This document shows, one piece after another, positions 34,650 to 43,559 of a stretch of DNA of 64,000 bases. The DNA is from Escherichia coli. GTDB taxonomy: Bacteria; Pseudomonadota; Gammaproteobacteria; Enterobacterales; Enterobacteriaceae. The stretch is from NCBI RefSeq assembly GCF_050320075.1, contig NZ_CP190018.1; one strand, given 5' to 3'. The notes under the pieces are model-generated. The model searched no databases, was not told where the DNA came from, and saw only the letters and a program-made list of their open reading frames with translations. Each line of letters starts with the position of its first letter. Position 1 is the first letter of the stretch. The position numbers and the translations under genes were made by a program.

Positions 34650-36149
34650 ATGAGCATCTTGTACGAAGAGCGTCTTGATGGCGCTTTACCCGATGTCGAC
34701 CGCACATCGGTACTGATGGCACTGCGTGAGCATGTCCCTGGACTGGAGATCCTGCATACCGATGAGGAGATCATTCCTTACGAGTGTGACGGGTTGAGCG
34801 CGTATCGCACGCGTCCATTACTGGTTGTTCTGCCTAAGCAAATGGAACAGGTGACAGCGATTCTGGCTGTTTGTCACCGCCTGCATGTACCGGTGGTGAC
34901 CCGTGGTGCAGGCACCGGGCTTTCTGGTGGCGCGCTGCCGCTGGAAAAAGGTGTGTTGTTGGTGATGGCGCGCTTTAAAGAGATCCTCGACATTAACCCC
35001 GTTGGTCGCCGCGCGCGCGCGCAGCCGGGCGTGCGTAACCTGGCGATCTCCCAGGCCGTTGCGCCGCATAATCTCTATTACGCGCCGGATCCTTCCTCAC
35101 AAATCGCCTGTTCAATTGGCGGCAATGTGGCGGAAAATGCCGGTGGCGTCCACTGCCTGAAATATGGTCTGACCGTACATAACCTGCTGAAAATTGAAGT
35201 GCAAACGCTGGACGGCGAGGCGCTGACGCTGGGATCGGACGCGCTGGATTCGCCTGGTTTTGACCTGCTGGCGCTGTTCACCGGATCGGAAGGTATGCTC
35301 GGCGTGACCACCGAAGTGACGGTAAAACTGCTGCCGAAGCCGCCCGTGGCGCGGGTTCTGTTAGCCAGCTTTGACTCGGTAGAAAAAGCCGGACTTGCGG
35401 TTGGTGACATCATCGCCAATGGCATTATCCCCGGCGGGCTGGAGATGATGGATAACCTGTCGATCCGCGCGGCGGAAGATTTTATTCATGCCGGTTATCC
35501 GGTCGACGCCGAAGCGATTTTGTTATGCGAGCTGGACGGCGTGGAGTCTGACGTACAGGAAGACTGCGAGCGGGTTAACGACATCTTGTTGAAAGCGGGC
35601 GCGACTGACGTCCGTCTGGCACAGGACGAAGCAGAGCGCGTACGTTTCTGGGCCGGTCGCAAAAATGCGTTCCCTGCGGTAGGACGAATCTCCCCGGATT
35701 ACTACTGCATGGATGGCACCATCCCGCGCCGCGCCCTGCCTGGCGTACTGGAAGGCATTGCCCGTTTATCGCAGCAATATGATTTACGCGTTGCCAACGT
35801 CTTTCATGCCGGAGACGGCAACATGCACCCGTTAATCCTTTTCGATGCCAACGAACCCGGTGAATTTGCCCGCGCGGAAGAGCTGGGCGGGAAGATCCTC
35901 GAACTCTGCGTTGAAGTTGGCGGCAGCATCAGTGGGGAACATGGCATCGGGCGCGAAAAAATCAATCAAATGTGCGCCCAGTTCAACAGCGATGAAATCA
36001 CGACCTTCCATGCGGTCAAGGCGGCGTTTGACCCCGATGGTTTGCTGAACCCTGGGAAAAACATTCCCACGCTACACCGCTGTGCTGAATTTGGTGCCAT
36101 GCATGTGCATCACGGTCATTTACCTTTCCCTGAACTGGAGCGTTTCTGA
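34650..36149 (+). CDS. glcD: Glycolate oxidase FAD-binding subunit GlcD
   Basis: 499 aa, matching recalled GlcD. Confidence 0.95.
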   Translation: MSILYEERLDGALPDVDRTSVLMALREHVPGLEILHTDEEIIPYECDGLSAYRTRPLLVVLPKQMEQVTAILAVCHRLHVPVVTRGAGTGLSGGALPLEKGVLLVMARFKEILDINPVGRRARAQPGVRNLAISQAVAPHNLYYAPDPSSQIACSIGGNVAENAGGVHCLKYGLTVHNLLKIEVQTLDGEALTLGSDALDSPGFDLLALFTGSEGMLGVTTEVTVKLLPKPPVARVLLASFDSVEKAGLAVGDIIANGIIPGGLEMMDNLSIRAAEDFIHAGYPVDAEAILLCELDGVESDVQEDCERVNDILLKAGATDVRLAQDEAERVRFWAGRKNAFPAVGRISPDYYCMDGTIPRRALPGVLEGIARLSQQYDLRVANVFHAGDGNMHPLILFDANEPGEFARAEELGGKILELCVEVGGSISGEHGIGREKINQMCAQFNSDEITTFHAVKAAFDPDGLLNPGKNIPTLHRCAEFGAMHVHHGHLPFPELERF

Positions 36150-37211: not shown

Positions 37212-38435
37212 ATGCAAACCCAATTAACCGAAGAGATGCGGCAGAACGCGCGGGCGCTGGAAGCCGACAGCATCCTGCGCGCCTGTGTTCACTGCGGATT
37301 TTGTACCGCAACCTGCCCAACCTATCAGCTCCTGGGCGATGAACTGGACGGGCCGCGCGGGCGCATCTATCTGATTAAACAGGTGCTGGAAGGTAACGAA
37401 GTCACGCTTAAAACACAGGAGCATCTCGATCGCTGTCTCACTTGCCGCAATTGTGAAACCACCTGTCCTTCTGGTGTGCGCTATCACAATTTGCTGGATA
37501 TCGGGCGTGATATTGTCGAGCAGAAAGTGAAACGCCCACTGCCGGAGCGAATGCTGCGCGAAGGATTGCGCCAGGTAGTGCCGCATCCGGCTGTCTTCCG
37601 TGCGCTGACGCAGGTAGGGCTGGTGCTGCGACCGTTTTTACCGGAACAGGTCAGAGCAAAACTGCCTGCTGAAACCGTAAAAGCTAAACCGCGTCCACCG
37701 CTGCGCCATAAGCGTCGGGTTTTAATGCTGGAAGGCTGCGCCCAGCCTACGCTTTCGCCCAACACCAACGCGGCAACTGCGCGAGTGCTGGATCGTCTGG
37801 GGATCAGCGTGACGCCAGCTAATGAAGCAGGCTGTTGTGGCGCGGTGGACTATCATCTTAATGCGCAAGAGAAAGGGCTGGCGCGGGCGCGCAATAATAT
37901 TGATGCCTGGTGGCCCGCGATTGAAGCAGGTGCCGAGGCTATTTTGCAGACTGCCAGCGGCTGCGGCGCGTTTGTCAAAGAGTATGGGCAGATGCTGAAA
38001 AACGATGCGTTGTATGCCGATAAAGCGCGTCAGGTCAGTGAGCTGGCGGTCGATTTAGTCGAACTTCTGCGCGAGGAACCGCTGGAAAAACTGGCAATTC
38101 GCGGCGATAAAAAACTGGCCTTCCACTGCCCGTGTACCCTGCAACATGCGCAAAAGCTGAACGGCGAAGTGGAAAAAGTGTTACTTCGTCTTGGATTTAC
38201 CTTAACGGACGTTCCCGACAGCCATCTGTGCTGCGGTTCAGCGGGAACATATGCGTTAACGCATCCCGATCTGGCGCGCCAGCTGCGGGATAACAAAATG
38301 AATGCGCTGGAAAGCGGCAAACCGGAAATGATCGTCACCGCCAACATTGGTTGCCAGACGCATCTGGCGAGCGCCGGTCGTACCTCTGTGCGTCACTGGA
38401 TTGAAATTGTAGAACAAGCCCTTGAAAAGGAATAA
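37212..38435 (+). CDS. glcF: Glycolate oxidase iron-sulfur subunit GlcF
   Basis: Track ORF 37065..38435 trimmed to the ATG at 37212 (MQTQLTEEMRQNARALEADSILRACVHCGFCTATCPTYQ...), 407 aa with two Cys clusters. Confidence 0.93.
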   Translation: MQTQLTEEMRQNARALEADSILRACVHCGFCTATCPTYQLLGDELDGPRGRIYLIKQVLEGNEVTLKTQEHLDRCLTCRNCETTCPSGVRYHNLLDIGRDIVEQKVKRPLPERMLREGLRQVVPHPAVFRALTQVGLVLRPFLPEQVRAKLPAETVKAKPRPPLRHKRRVLMLEGCAQPTLSPNTNAATARVLDRLGISVTPANEAGCCGAVDYHLNAQEKGLARARNNIDAWWPAIEAGAEAILQTASGCGAFVKEYGQMLKNDALYADKARQVSELAVDLVELLREEPLEKLAIRGDKKLAFHCPCTLQHAQKLNGEVEKVLLRLGFTLTDVPDSHLCCGSAGTYALTHPDLARQLRDNKMNALESGKPEMIVTANIGCQTHLASAGRTSVRHWIEIVEQALEKE

Positions 38436-38865: not shown

Positions 38866-41037
38866 ATGAGTCAAACCATAACCCAGGGCCGTTTACGCAT
38901 TGACGCCAATTTTAAACGTTTTGTGGATGAAGAAGTTTTGCCGGGAACAGGGTTGGACGCTGCGGCGTTCTGGCGCAATGTTGATGAGATCGTTCACGAT
39001 CTGGCACCAGAAAATCGTCAGTTGCTGGCAGAACGCGATCGCATTCAGGCGGCGCTTGATGAGTGGCATCGCAGCAATCCGGGGCCGGTTAAAGATAAAG
39101 CGGCCTATAAATCTTTCCTGCGTGAACTGGGCTACCTGGTGCCACAACCGGATCGCGTGACGGTGGAAACCACGGGCATTGACAGCGAAATCACCAGCCA
39201 GGCGGGGCCACAGCTGGTGGTTCCGGCAATGAACGCCCGCTACGCGCTGAACGCGGCGAACGCTCGCTGGGGCTCACTGTACGATGCGTTATACGGCAGC
39301 GACATCATCCCGCAGGAAGGGGCGATGGTCAGCGGCTACGATCCGCAGCGCGGTGAGCAGGTTATCGCCTGGGTTCGGCGTTTCCTCGATGAATCACTAC
39401 CGCTGGAAAACGGCAGCTATCAGGATGTGGTGGCGTTTAAGGTGGTTGATAAACAATTACGCATCCAGTTGAAAAATGGTAAAGAAACCACGTTACGCAC
39501 CCCGGCGCAGTTTGTCGGTTACCGTGGCAATGCCGCTGCGCCGTCCTGCATTTTGCTGAAAAATAACGGCCTGCATATTGAGCTGCAAATCGATGCCAAC
39601 GGGCGGATTGGCAAAGACGATCCGGCGCATATCAACGATGTTATCGTCGAAGCGGCCATCAGTACCATTCTCGACTGCGAAGATTCGGTCGCGGCGGTTG
39701 ATGCGGAAGATAAAATCCTGCTGTACCGCAACCTGCTGGGCCTGATGCAGGGGACTCTGCAAGAGAAAATGGAAAAAAACGGTCGGCAAATCGTGCGTAA
39801 ACTGAATGACGATCGTCATTACACCGCCGCCGATGGCTCTGAAATTTCTCTGCACGGACGCTCGCTGCTGTTTATCCGCAACGTGGGTCATTTGATGACC
39901 ATTCCTGTGATTTGGGACAGCGAAGGCAATGAAATCCCGGAAGGCATTCTTGATGGCGTCATGACTGGCGCGATTGCCCTCTATGATTTAAAAGTGCAGA
40001 AAAACTCGCGCACTGGCAGCGTCTATATTGTGAAACCGAAAATGCACGGTCCGCAGGAAGTGGCGTTCGCCAACAAACTGTTTACCCGCATTGAGACAAT
40101 GCTCGGTATGGCACCGAATACCCTGAAAATGGGCATTATGGATGAAGAACGTCGGACCTCGCTGAACTTGCGTAGCTGTATCGCTCAGGCGCGCAACCGC
40201 GTGGCGTTCATCAATACCGGTTTCCTCGACCGTACCGGCGATGAAATGCATTCGGTGATGGAAGCTGGCCCGATGCTGCGTAAAAATCAGATGAAATCGA
40301 CGCCTTGGATCAAAGCCTACGAGCGTAATAACGTGCTTTCCGGTCTGTTCTGTGGGCTGCGCGGTAAAGCGCAAATTGGTAAAGGCATGTGGGCAATGCC
40401 GGACCTGATGGCAGACATGTACAGCCAGAAGGGCGACCAACTGCGTGCCGGGGCAAACACAGCCTGGGTTCCGTCACCAACCGCTGCTACGCTCCATGCG
40501 CTGCACTACCACCAAACCAACGTACAGAGCGTGCAGGCCAACATTGCCCAGAGCGAGTTCAATGCTGAATTTGAACCGCTGCTGGACGATCTGCTGACTA
40601 TTCCGGTGGCTGAAAACGCTAACTGGTCGGTGGAAGAGATCCAACAAGAGCTGGATAACAACGTGCAGGGGATTCTGGGGTACGTGGTGCGTTGGGTGGA
40701 GCAGGGGATTGGTTGTTCAAAAGTGCCGGATATTCACAACGTGGCGCTGATGGAAGACCGCGCAACGCTGCGTATCTCCAGCCAGCATATCGCCAACTGG
40801 TTACGTCACGGTATTCTGACCAAAGAACAGGTGCAGGCGTCGCTGGAGAATATGGCGAAAGTGGTTGATCAGCAAAACGCTGGCGATCCGGCTTATCGTC
40901 CGATGGCGGGGAATTTCGCTAACTCGTGTGCTTTTAAAGCTGCCAGCGATTTAATCTTCCTCGGCGTGAAACAGCCAAACGGCTATACCGAACCGTTATT
41001 ACACGCCTGGCGTTTACGCGAAAAAGAAAGTCATTAA
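38866..41037 (+). CDS. glcB: Malate synthase G
   Basis: 723 aa ([31 protein letters not shown]...), matching recalled GlcB. Confidence 0.95.
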
Positions 41038-41050
41038 TAGCGTCAAAAAA

Positions 41051-41076
41051 GCCCCGGCAAGTTTTATTGTCGGGGC
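41051..41076. terminator. Stem-loop after glcB (gccccggcaa / ttgtcggggc)
   Basis: 10-bp stem with one G-U position and a T-rich loop. No downstream U-tract, so the call is uncertain. Confidence 0.35.
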
Positions 41077-41391
41077 TATGATAGTAACTGCGGTAGTACA
41101 TTTATCCCGGAAATAACCGGAGCGATTATCAGGGTTTAACAATATTAAATACCCGTAGCGCATTACTAGCGGGCCTAAAACAACAATATGGACATCTTAA
41201 CGATACTCTGCGCCTGCGTGTGCGGAACAGAAACCCTTACCCGATATACTTGTTATGCCAGAGGTAGCAATTGCGTTAGCAGCGTACTGTTGCTGTAAAG
41301 TATAACGCCTATATTTTACAGTTCAGTCCTCTTTTGCTTATTACAACCTTAAGTATATCAAGCATATAAAGATAATAAGAGACTGAACAAT

Positions 41392-43074
41392 ATGGTTACC
41401 TGGACCCAAATGTATATGCCGATGGGAGGACTGGGGCTATCCGCTCTGGTCGCCCTGATCCCGATAATATTCTTCTTCGTTGCACTCGCGGTATTACGTC
41501 TGAAAGGACATGTCGCTGGAGCAATAACCCTTATATTATCTATCCTGATTGCAATATTCGCCTTTAAAATGCCGATTGATATGGCATTTGCTGCTGCGGG
41601 CTATGGCTTTATTTATGGTTTATGGCCTATTGCGTGGATTATTGTCGCGGCGGTATTCTTGTATAAATTAACCGTTGCCAGCGGCCAGTTCGATATTATC
41701 CGCAGCTCGGTTATCTCCATCACCGACGATCAGCGTTTGCAGGTGTTACTGATTGGTTTCTCCTTTGGCGCGTTGCTGGAAGGGGCGGCTGGCTTTGGTG
41801 CGCCGGTGGCGATTACCGGTGCGCTGCTGGTGGGCCTGGGCTTCAAACCGTTATACGCGGCGGGGCTGTGTCTGATTGCCAACACTGCGCCGGTGGCGTT
41901 TGGTGCGTTGGGCGTGCCGATTCTGGTCGCCGGTCAGGTAACGGGAATCGATCCGTTCCACATTGGCGCAATGGCGGGACGTCAGTTACCGTTCCTGTCG
42001 GTTCTTGTGCCGTTCTGGCTGGTAGCAATGATGGACGGCTGGAAAGGGGTGAAAGAGACGTGGCCAGCGGCGCTGGTTGCTGGGGGAAGCTTCGCTGTCA
42101 CTCAGTTCTTTACCTCTAACTATATTGGTCCGGAACTGCCGGATATTACTTCGGCGCTGGTGAGTATCGTCTCACTCGCTTTATTCCTTAAAGTCTGGCG
42201 GCCGAAAAATACCGAAACGGCAATCAGCATGGGACAATCCGCAGGTGCGATGGTGGTGAATAAACCATCTTCTGGCGGTCCCGTGCCTTCAGAATATAGT
42301 CTGGGGCAAATCATTCGTGCGTGGTCACCGTTTTTAATCTTAACGGTGCTGGTCACCATCTGGACCATGAAGCCGTTTAAAGCGTTATTTGCTCCGGGCG
42401 GCGCGTTTTATTCACTGGTGATTAATTTCCAGATCCCTCATTTGCATCAACAAGTGTTGAAAGCGGCACCCATTGTCGCCCAACCAACGCCAATGGATGC
42501 GGTGTTTAAATTAGACCCTCTCTCGGCTGGCGGCACCGCTATTTTTATTGCGGCGATTATCTCTATCTTCATCCTCGGCGTGGGCATCAAGAAAGGGATT
42601 GGCGTCTTTGCCGAAACGCTAATTAGTCTGAAGTGGCCGATATTGTCGATTGGCATGGTGCTGGCGTTCGCCTTCGTCACCAACTATTCCGGTATGTCCA
42701 CCACGCTGGCGCTGGTACTGGCAGGTACAGGCGTGATGTTCCCGTTTTTCTCACCGTTTCTCGGCTGGCTGGGCGTATTCCTTACCGGCTCGGACACCTC
42801 CTCTAACGCCCTGTTTGGTTCACTGCAATCGACCACGGCGCAGCAAATCAACGTCTCTGACACTCTGCTGGTGGCAGCAAATACCAGCGGCGGCGTAACT
42901 GGCAAGATGATCTCCCCGCAATCTATCGCCGTGGCCTGCGCCGCGACGGGCATGGTGGGCCGAGAATCTGAACTGTTCCGCTACACCGTGAAGCACAGTC
43001 TGATTTTTGCCAGCGTTATCGGCATTATCACGCTGTTGCAGGCGTATGTGTTTACCGGGATGTTAGTTTCGTAA
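41392..43074 (+). CDS. glcA: Glycolate/lactate permease GlcA
   Basis: 560-aa polytopic ORF matching the recalled GlcA/LldP family. Confidence 0.92.
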
Positions 43075-43083
43075 GTCAATAAT

Positions 43084-43110
43084 GCCGGATGATCGTTAAT
43101 ATCATCCGGC
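43084..43110. terminator. Hairpin terminator after glcA
   Basis: Perfect 10-bp stem (gccggatgat / atcatccggc) with a 7-nt loop, followed by a moderately T-rich tract. Confidence 0.55.
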
Positions 43111-43559
43111 TACATTTACATTATTCTGTCTTATTAATTGAAAATTATTTCCCTCTTTATTATCCATGCAGCAATAATGTTTTGCGTTCAGATAACCTGC
43201 TAAATAATTAAGAACGTGAGAATATCTATTTTTTTATCACGCAAAACAAGTTTGTACTAATTATGTTCGCTTGATGAGCAAACACCGTGCTATCTGTTGC
43301 TTTTGCAATCGCAATCGTTAAAACTATCAACAACTTGGGATAGTTACATTGTGAATAATTGTTACTTTTTTGTTTGTTGAATCTTTTTATAAATACCCCG
43401 TCTGACATCGAATAGGGGTTATTCTTATAAATTTTACCTGCTTTGCTATCAATGATGCCGTTTTATTAAGAATGGAGGAAGTTATTAGAGAAGATAAAGC
43501 ATAAAACTATTTCTCCCAGTTACGAATTTTTTAACATTGTTTTGTCACTTGCGTTATTA

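Follow-up and report, generated by a model that had tools for sequence, protein, structure and literature searches.

A hairpin at mapped 3' ends of glcB transcripts and a strongly conserved region upstream of glcA in the long glcB-glcA spacer of Escherichia coli

Introduction

When Núñez et al. first described glcA (yghK) of Escherichia coli in 2001, they reportedly located it "350 bp downstream of glcB." From the same stretch of DNA, the small-RNA candidate C0719 is said to have been discovered by Tjaden et al. in 2002 in an oligonucleotide-array screen, with imprecise ends. The glcB-glcA spacer is already catalogued: C0719 has been listed in Rfam and EcoCyc for two decades, and published Term-seq tables contain the 3' end at the hairpin. 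With respect to C0719 (RF00117; EcoCyc G0-8912), the region studied here is the same DNA in the same place, read from the same minus strand and with no sequence difference, and hence it is that locus. It departs from what would be expected of C0719 as an independent RNA, for which it provides no above-chance promoter, no mapped ends, and no covariation.

For the sense strand, the 3' ends of Rho-terminated or cleaved transcripts are, according to what Dar and Sorek reportedly found in 2018, trimmed back to a protective hairpin. The glcB locus resembles such ends, as its transcripts end at a hairpin that lacks a U-tract and is followed by a long untranslated stretch in which Rho or RNase E could act, but it shows no marked C-over-G bias downstream, and a role of Rho is putative here. 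A similar likeness exists to the intercistronic stabilizer hairpins of selective RNA processing and stabilization (PMC10667835), i.e., a stable hairpin after the upstream cistron, 3' ends a few nucleotides further on, and an extended untranslated interval preceding a downstream cistron for a membrane protein. Unlike stabilizer elements of the REP type, the glcB hairpin is a unique sequence with one copy per genome. With Rho-independent terminators it has in common a G+C-rich stem of 11 bp, a small loop, and 3' ends that map shortly after it, whereas the sense strand has no U-tract; the U-tract lies on the antisense side, which lacks mapped ends.

Results

The spacer and its hairpin

The window, i.e., the whole stretch of 64,000 nucleotides of E. 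coli contig NZ_CP190018.1 (assembly GCF_050320075.1) that was analyzed, contains the gene of malate synthase G (glcB, 38866..41037) and that of the glycolate/lactate:H+ symporter (glcA, 41392..43074) on the plus strand, and the list of open reading frames (ORFs) leaves a gap of exactly 354 nt between them (41038..41391). Both assignments agree with the K-12 annotation, with the malate-synthase domains that Pfam assigns to the GlcB orthologue of Klebsiella/Raoultella, and with the Pfam domain Lactate_perm on homologues of GlcA. In the K-12 RefSeq record, the two genes are annotated around a spacer that is 99.4% identical to that of the window (window position = 3162671 - genome position). The TAA stop codon of glcB is directly followed by an in-frame TAG (41038-41040), which results in tandem stops. 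The remaining glc junctions, mapped from K-12 coordinates to the window, measure only -1 nt (glcD/E), 10 nt (glcE/F), 4 nt (glcF/G), and 21 nt (glcG/B), which makes the gap of 354 nt an outlier, and its G+C content of 40.7% compares with 53.9% in glcB and 53.2% in glcA. The original prediction of an unusually long, AT-rich spacer that begins with a stem-loop in an otherwise packed glc cluster was correct in all details. Of 5426 complete E. coli genomes, 4543 contain the spacer at an identity of at least 95%, with a median of one place per genome, and an origin as a repeat or mobile element is ruled out by this single copy.

Thirteen nucleotides past the TAA stop, a G+C-rich hairpin begins on the plus strand (41050..41077; inverted repeat I3 and folding), whose arms at 41050-41060 (AGCCCCGGCAA) and 41067-41077 (TTGTCGGGGCT) form a stem of 11 bp with a loop of 6 nt. 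It is abutted by a run of six A (41045..41050), equivalent to six U in a minus-strand RNA, and an A-run is found here in all five lineages compared (alignments A1 to A3). The hairpin core reaches -18.7 kcal/mol on the plus strand, with a perfect 11-bp stem including one G-U pair, versus -14.3 kcal/mol on the minus strand, where one A-C mismatch occurs. In E. albertii, in Raoultella (locus L006), and in Citrobacter (locus L085), the hairpin likewise contains G-U wobbles on the plus strand, each time at different positions, that turn into mismatches when read on the minus strand; only the hairpin of the Klebsiella/Raoultella locus L083 is symmetrical between the strands, and the plus strand is the more stable one in four of the five lineages.

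Published maps place the in vivo 3' ends of glc-sense RNAs at 41081..41084 on the plus strand (K-12 positions 3121590 to 3121587, minus strand), which is 4-7 nt past the hairpin, in four data sets. In the Term-seq data of Adams et al. 2021, the 3' end at 3121590(-), corresponding to window position 41081, is represented by 47,630 reads, in LB at an OD of 2.0 only, where it is categorized as a primary end of glcB and as antisense to C0719. Operon 398 of Table S7 in PMC10667835 extends over 3121589..3125148(-), comprises glcB, glcF, and glcG, and has one termination site with its boundary at 3121589. Supplementary Data 2 of PMC10687069 lists an RNAtag-seq site at 3121587-3121594(-) with a signal of 0.947 and, from the re-analyzed Term-seq data of Dar and Sorek, a glcB site with a signal of 1 that is designated "Alternative primary in TU." The published data hence show sense-strand ends a few nucleotides past a stable hairpin between two cistrons, as in an intercistronic 3' end or stabilizer. 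Since the asymmetry of the wobble pairs favors the plus strand and the mapped ends lie there, the hairpin has probably been selected as a part of the glc mRNA. The attenuator that had been proposed for the spacer is borne out to the extent that the plus-strand hairpin coincides with the mapped 3' end of the glcB transcript in all four data sets, which fits the role of an attenuator as it does that of a terminator or a stabilizer.

A G+C-rich stem is present on the sense strand, but its tail (UAUGAUAG) is not a U-tract, and a scan for consensus intrinsic terminators returned none on the sense strand; in its strict form, it also missed the hairpin with six U on the antisense strand. There, the sequence AGCCCCGACAAUAAAACUUGCCGGGGCUUUUUUGA has the shape of an intrinsic terminator, i.e., a hairpin with a stem of -14.3 kcal/mol followed by UUUUUU, and since the conserved A-run provides a U-tract on the minus strand only, the hairpin qualifies as a canonical terminator solely when transcription is antisense. 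In the sense direction, it acts either as a weak, noncanonical terminator or, with greater probability, as a barrier that stops the trimming of longer transcripts, and the observed 3' ends may originate from weak termination, from Rho termination with subsequent trimming, or from cleavage with subsequent trimming. With respect to Rho, the base composition downstream of the hairpin revealed no clear C-rich and G-poor window and no marked C-over-G bias indicative of a loading site, and no Rho region is listed for the spacer in Adams et al. 2021, a data set that covers only a condition without induction of glc.

In E. coli PEC408 (locus L001, NZ_CM168008.1, 4001-8047), the spacer is cut after the first 47 nt, just beyond the hairpin (window 41038-41084). 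Past the cut follow the IS5-like element ISKpn26, part of a gene for an N-acetylneuraminate epimerase, and a Zorya defense system of type II; glcA has been lost in this strain and the hairpin was kept.

The consequences of a strong end after glcB concern the established view of the operon. Published papers describe glcDEFGBA as one polycistronic unit, and read-through must accordingly occur under induction unless glcA has another start. A promoter of its own within the conserved 200 nt upstream of glcA, for which an activator or an alternative sigma factor might be required and by which glcA would be transcribed independently of glcDEFGB once most transcripts from upstream have stopped at the hairpin, is a possible but doubtful solution. 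It is favored by the efficient ending of transcripts at the hairpin and by the operon table of PMC10667835, in which no unit neighboring operon 398 contains glcA, and the strong constraint just 5' of glcA and an A+T-rich tract with several -10-like hexamers would suit it. However, the papers place glcA in the unit of the glcD promoter, and neither a start nor a processing site inside the spacer is entered in the Cappable-seq, SMRT-Cappable-seq, and PMC10667835 tables, whose files may be incomplete.

The promoter scans also speak against it. A strict sigma-70 consensus scan found 0 sites in the spacer versus 1.8 expected, and in a relaxed position-weight scan of both strands the best candidates scored 7.1 (minus strand, CTGAAC-16-TATACT, with the -10 hexamer at 41299-41304) and 5.8 (plus strand) compared with a median best score of 8.9 in shuffled sequences. 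Across E. coli and four orthologous spacers, no candidate is conserved in position and none exceeds shuffled sequence; the moderate candidate of Klebsiella/Raoultella L083 (GTGACG-16-TATATT, score 8.9) is not conserved in E. coli. The internal promoter considered in the original prediction receives no support from the sequence. In the passages covered from the gSELEX papers on LldR, PdhR, and FlhDC, no site is reported in this spacer. As an observation on the operon itself, the published glcF-glcG-glcB unit begins at K-12 position 3125148(-), approximately window position 37523, inside glcF, with several start sites listed, which may indicate 5' ends in the interior of the operon.

Constraint on the spacer in Escherichia

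The spacer is 94.9% identical to that of E. albertii, and identity rises to 98.5% over 41188..41391, a near-invariant region of about 200 nt just 5' of glcA on the plus strand with 3 differences in 204 nt, which we propose as a leader or regulatory region; the first 150 nt of the spacer contain 15 differences. For comparison, overall identity amounts to 90.9% for glcB and 90.1% for glcA and falls to 71.7% and 67.8%, respectively, at four-fold degenerate sites, and the intergenic region between glcA and yghJ (43075-43541, 467 nt) is only 75.8% identical to that of E. albertii and 56% identical to locus L004. This second intergenic region contains the site listed at K-12 position 3119339(-) in Supporting Table 1-2 of PMC10667835. 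In the bins that touch the spacer, four-fold identity to E. albertii amounts to 0.69-0.85, and an imported recombination tract as the source of the high identity is ruled out by these neutral levels at the adjoining four-fold sites. Within E. coli, 69% of the spacer copies (3123 of 4543) are at least 99% identical to that of the window, compared with 60% when the terminal 354 nt of glcB are considered and 2% when the initial 354 nt of glcA are. Judged from these comparisons, the spacer is under unusually strong purifying selection in Escherichia, which is a new result of the present study.

The first 354 nt of glcA in the window (41392-41745) represent a rare allele that is found with at least 99% identity in 108 of 4427 E. 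coli genomes (2%). Mutations at glcA have been reported to recur in experiments on long-term stationary-phase evolution, where they are contingent on earlier mutations in glcC (PMC11213340).

In view of these data, it is very improbable that the spacer is merely a neutral leftover of the joining of glcA to the glc operon, with no function beyond the ribosome-binding site. Such an origin would be compatible with the low G+C content, with a sequence that has mostly diverged past BLAST detection between genera, and with a rate of change close to the synonymous one in Klebsiella/Raoultella, but within Escherichia the rate of change in the spacer is about one-sixth of that at four-fold sites and far below that of the neighboring intergenic region, and the hairpin coincides with mapped RNA ends. 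The strong constraint argues that something in the spacer works, either the glcA leader or C0719.

The minus strand and C0719

A search with cmscan identified the Rfam family RF00117 (C0719) on the minus strand at 41092..41313, inside the spacer and opposite to both glcB and glcA (yghK), with 298.4 bits (gathering threshold of 50 bits; E = 3.9e-79) and over the full model (positions 1-222 of 222). It was the sole match: at E <= 1, no other family, including riboswitches, leaders, and thermometers on the plus strand, was found in 40500-42000. The model scores 272.7 bits in the E. albertii copy and does not match the Raoultella spacer. The family is confined to Escherichia/Shigella, and C0719 was described in published work as lost in phylogroup E and in some Shigella lineages. 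The current K-12 RefSeq record contains no RNA feature in the spacer and C0719 is absent from it.

The functional unit of the spacer could be the minus-strand RNA, transcribed from a promoter within 41300-41390, running antisense through the spacer, and stopping at the hairpin and six U next to the glcB stop codon. It would act in trans by means of a conserved seed at its 5' end or, in cis, on the mRNA of the glc operon. Such an explanation, which is compatible with a function of the sense strand, we regard as tentative and as rather doubtful. It has the full-length RF00117 match on its side, together with the terminator-shaped end, whose U-run has an equivalent in all five lineages, and a distribution of conservation that resembles a small RNA, i.e., a near-invariant 5' part with 78 nt upstream of it, a looser 3' part, and a retained terminator. 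On the other side, the wobble pairs of the hairpin favor the plus strand, no promoter exceeds chance (the best minus-strand score is the 7.1 mentioned above), and the tables of Adams et al. 2021 and the TRS/RNAtag-seq tables contain no C0719-sense 3' end near the U-run (K-12 plus strand, 31216xx) in the conditions sampled, despite the strong end on the sense strand. The available 3'-end maps thus favor the sense strand and not C0719, whose annotated 3' end (41092) stops 15 nt short of the start of the terminator-shaped hairpin on the minus strand (41077).

For the secondary structure of RF00117, five Escherichia sequences with little variation were compared: no pair of 32 changed on both sides, and of the one-sided changes three keep and two break the pairing. 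The three changes that are kept are A-to-G exchanges in helices 4 and 5 and preserve pairing on the minus strand only, which favors C0719, whereas compensatory pairs are missing and two changes break Rfam helices. Lack of conserved structure would have spoken against the original prediction; no covariation was found, but the sequence itself is strongly conserved.

Published experiments touch C0719 from several sides. A transposon insertion at the C0719 site lowered the retrohoming of a group II intron (PMC3636086), and reads assigned to C0719 increased in the transition phase (PMC4676190), both of which would agree with an active RNA. However, the read counting of the latter study was probably strand-unaware (the word "strand" is absent from its text), so that the intergenic C0719 counts may represent glc read-through, and the overexpression of C0719 was reported to cause no biofilm or motility phenotype. 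The idea that the spacer may contain a small RNA is therefore only partly sustained, as a candidate with 298 bits is catalogued here but lies on the strand opposite to glc and is unproven as an independent transcript; C0719 is a possible but unproven database annotation.

An additional ORF of the minus strand (window 41017-41163, 49 codons) extends over the glcB stop codon and the hairpin and has been annotated automatically as a "hypothetical protein" in a few E. coli genomes; there is no support for it as a gene.

Coding potential and folding of the plus strand

The plus strand of the conserved region contains an ORF of 36 codons (41188-41298, MDILTILCACVC...) that is intact in Escherichia. 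A small protein encoded by the spacer, for which this ORF would be the example, is hardly credible. The first 12 codons resemble an ORF of 12 to 15 codons in Klebsiella/Raoultella, but the likeness is at the level of nucleotides including third positions, only one of six codon differences is synonymous, and the reading frame comprises 36 codons in Escherichia versus 12-15 in Raoultella and has ACG in place of ATG in Citrobacter. Moreover, no Shine-Dalgarno sequence precedes it, and the exact peptide is absent from about 15 billion proteins. The small-ORF reading was rejected, as no ORF is common to the three enterobacterial lineages and the block is conserved as nucleotides.

On either strand, the predicted fold is somewhat more stable than that of shuffled sequences, more so on the plus strand. 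The whole spacer has a z score of -3.5 on the plus strand and -2.35 on the minus strand, and the 115 nt proximal to glcA have z scores of -3.5 and -1.9, respectively. A notably stable element is an A+U-rich hairpin or palindrome of 12 bp with a loop of 5 nt on the plus strand (CTGTAAAGTATA / TATATTTTACAG, 41293..41321; inverted repeat I2), whose surroundings (41286-41326) fold with -15 kcal/mol at z = -5.5, a stability reached by none of 200 shuffles. Of the natural changes in paired positions, eight keep and eight break a pair in the minimum-free-energy fold of the plus strand, versus five kept and eleven broken in that of the minus strand, again with no compensatory pairs. RNAalifold predicted "compensatory" pairs across genera only where the alignment is unreliable.

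The likely ribosome-binding site of glcA is AAGAGA (41377..41382, plus strand), 9 nt 5' of the ATG (alignments A2 to A4). It adjoins an inverted repeat of 8 bp in which 41321-41328 pairs with 41381-41388 (GTTCAGTC/GACTGAAC). Sequestration of the ribosome-binding site by this repeat was rejected, as the accessibility from -17 to +3 is 0.42 compared with 0.50 +/- 0.13 in shuffled sequences; in the other enterobacteria, the site is predicted not to be sequestered. The inverted repeat 41243-41251 / 41351-41359 was likewise discarded as a probable chance product, whose pairing is broken by two natural changes without compensation.

Distribution of glcA and of its upstream region

Orthologues of GlcA with at least 88% identity are confined to Escherichia, the Klebsiella/Raoultella group, and one assembly of Citrobacter freundii, and the next-best matches are Pseudomonas permeases with about 80% identity. 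In all of these enterobacteria, the order is glcB, a long spacer, and glcA, and the spacer, which comprises 354 nt in Escherichia, is longer in Klebsiella/Raoultella (397-401 nt) and in Citrobacter (415 nt); several genomes of Pseudomonas and Azotobacter have glcB and glcA separated by 110-480 nt. The spacer is not detectable by BLAST between genera, and a metagenome scan for further non-Escherichia spacers returned three chance matches, all of them without glcA or glcB.

Alignment uncovered several pieces that are common to the genera, namely, the A-run with the hairpin, a TGCGGTA motif, the block 41188-41241, and about 40 nt before the start codon. The block (41188..41241; ATGGACATCTTAA .. 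TCTGCGC .. GTGTGC.GAA .. CTTACC) is shared at the level of nucleotides, not codons (alignments A1 to A3), and in Citrobacter it has, next to the ACG, an insertion of 23 nt. Around the ribosome-binding site, an AATAAT.AGAGA block is common to Klebsiella/Raoultella, Citrobacter, and Pseudomonas veronii. Since the spacer of Klebsiella/Raoultella changes at about the synonymous rate (93% identity versus 92% and 84%), the strong constraint is specific to Escherichia.

The E. coli proteins GlcD (window 34650-36149) and GlcA are approximately 86-87% and 80% identical, respectively, to Pseudomonas proteins (loci L012, L015, L023, L026, and L028). The rarity of glcA in Enterobacteriaceae and this similarity to Pseudomonas suggest that the glc cluster or parts of it may have moved between the groups. 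A permease gene in a different setting was observed on an ENA contig (NODE_8868, 380-687; L086), where it is preceded not by glcB but by a DUF2810 gene; the permease shares 89% identity with GlcA of E. coli. The region upstream of this permease gene contains the palindrome AATTGGCCCTACCAATT, which is similar to PdhR sites (AATTGGT...ACCAATT) compiled in PMC7660256.

Discussion

Overall, the mapped 3' ends at the hairpin and the near-invariance of the region upstream of glcA are best explained, with a probability of roughly 0.6, by a hairpin that forms or protects the 3' end of the glcB mRNA and limits read-through, followed by a conserved glcA leader, with C0719 annotated on the opposite strand. 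The main activity of the spacer would lie on the sense strand. Transcription from upstream would reach the hairpin (41050-41077), and many transcripts would end there or be trimmed and protected 4-7 nt past it. A stable mRNA up to glcB and fewer transcripts into glcA would be the outcome, and the enzymes would probably be produced in larger amounts than the membrane permease. The other 300 nt of the spacer, chiefly the approximately 200 nt before the glcA start codon, would serve as a selectively constrained leader or regulatory region. We infer that the hairpin lowers the expression of glcA and that the effect of the conserved 200 nt is exerted through the glcA mRNA; the conserved 5' part and the terminator would suit a small RNA of the minus strand equally well.

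For the biology of E. coli, the textbook view of glcDEFGBA as a single unit has to be supplemented with a strong internal transcript end after glcB. Going beyond the leader proposed above, 41188-41391 might also be an undescribed regulatory RNA, either a structured leader of glcA that reacts to a signal or serves as a small-RNA target, or a sense/antisense pair with C0719 that sets the expression of the permease, but we consider this rather unlikely. If the pairing of 41188-41391 with C0719 proved true, an orphan array candidate from 2002 would become a functional regulator. For the most part, the present findings tidy the record; they may be of use for the engineering of glycolate uptake and for the re-evaluation of orphan small-RNA annotations.
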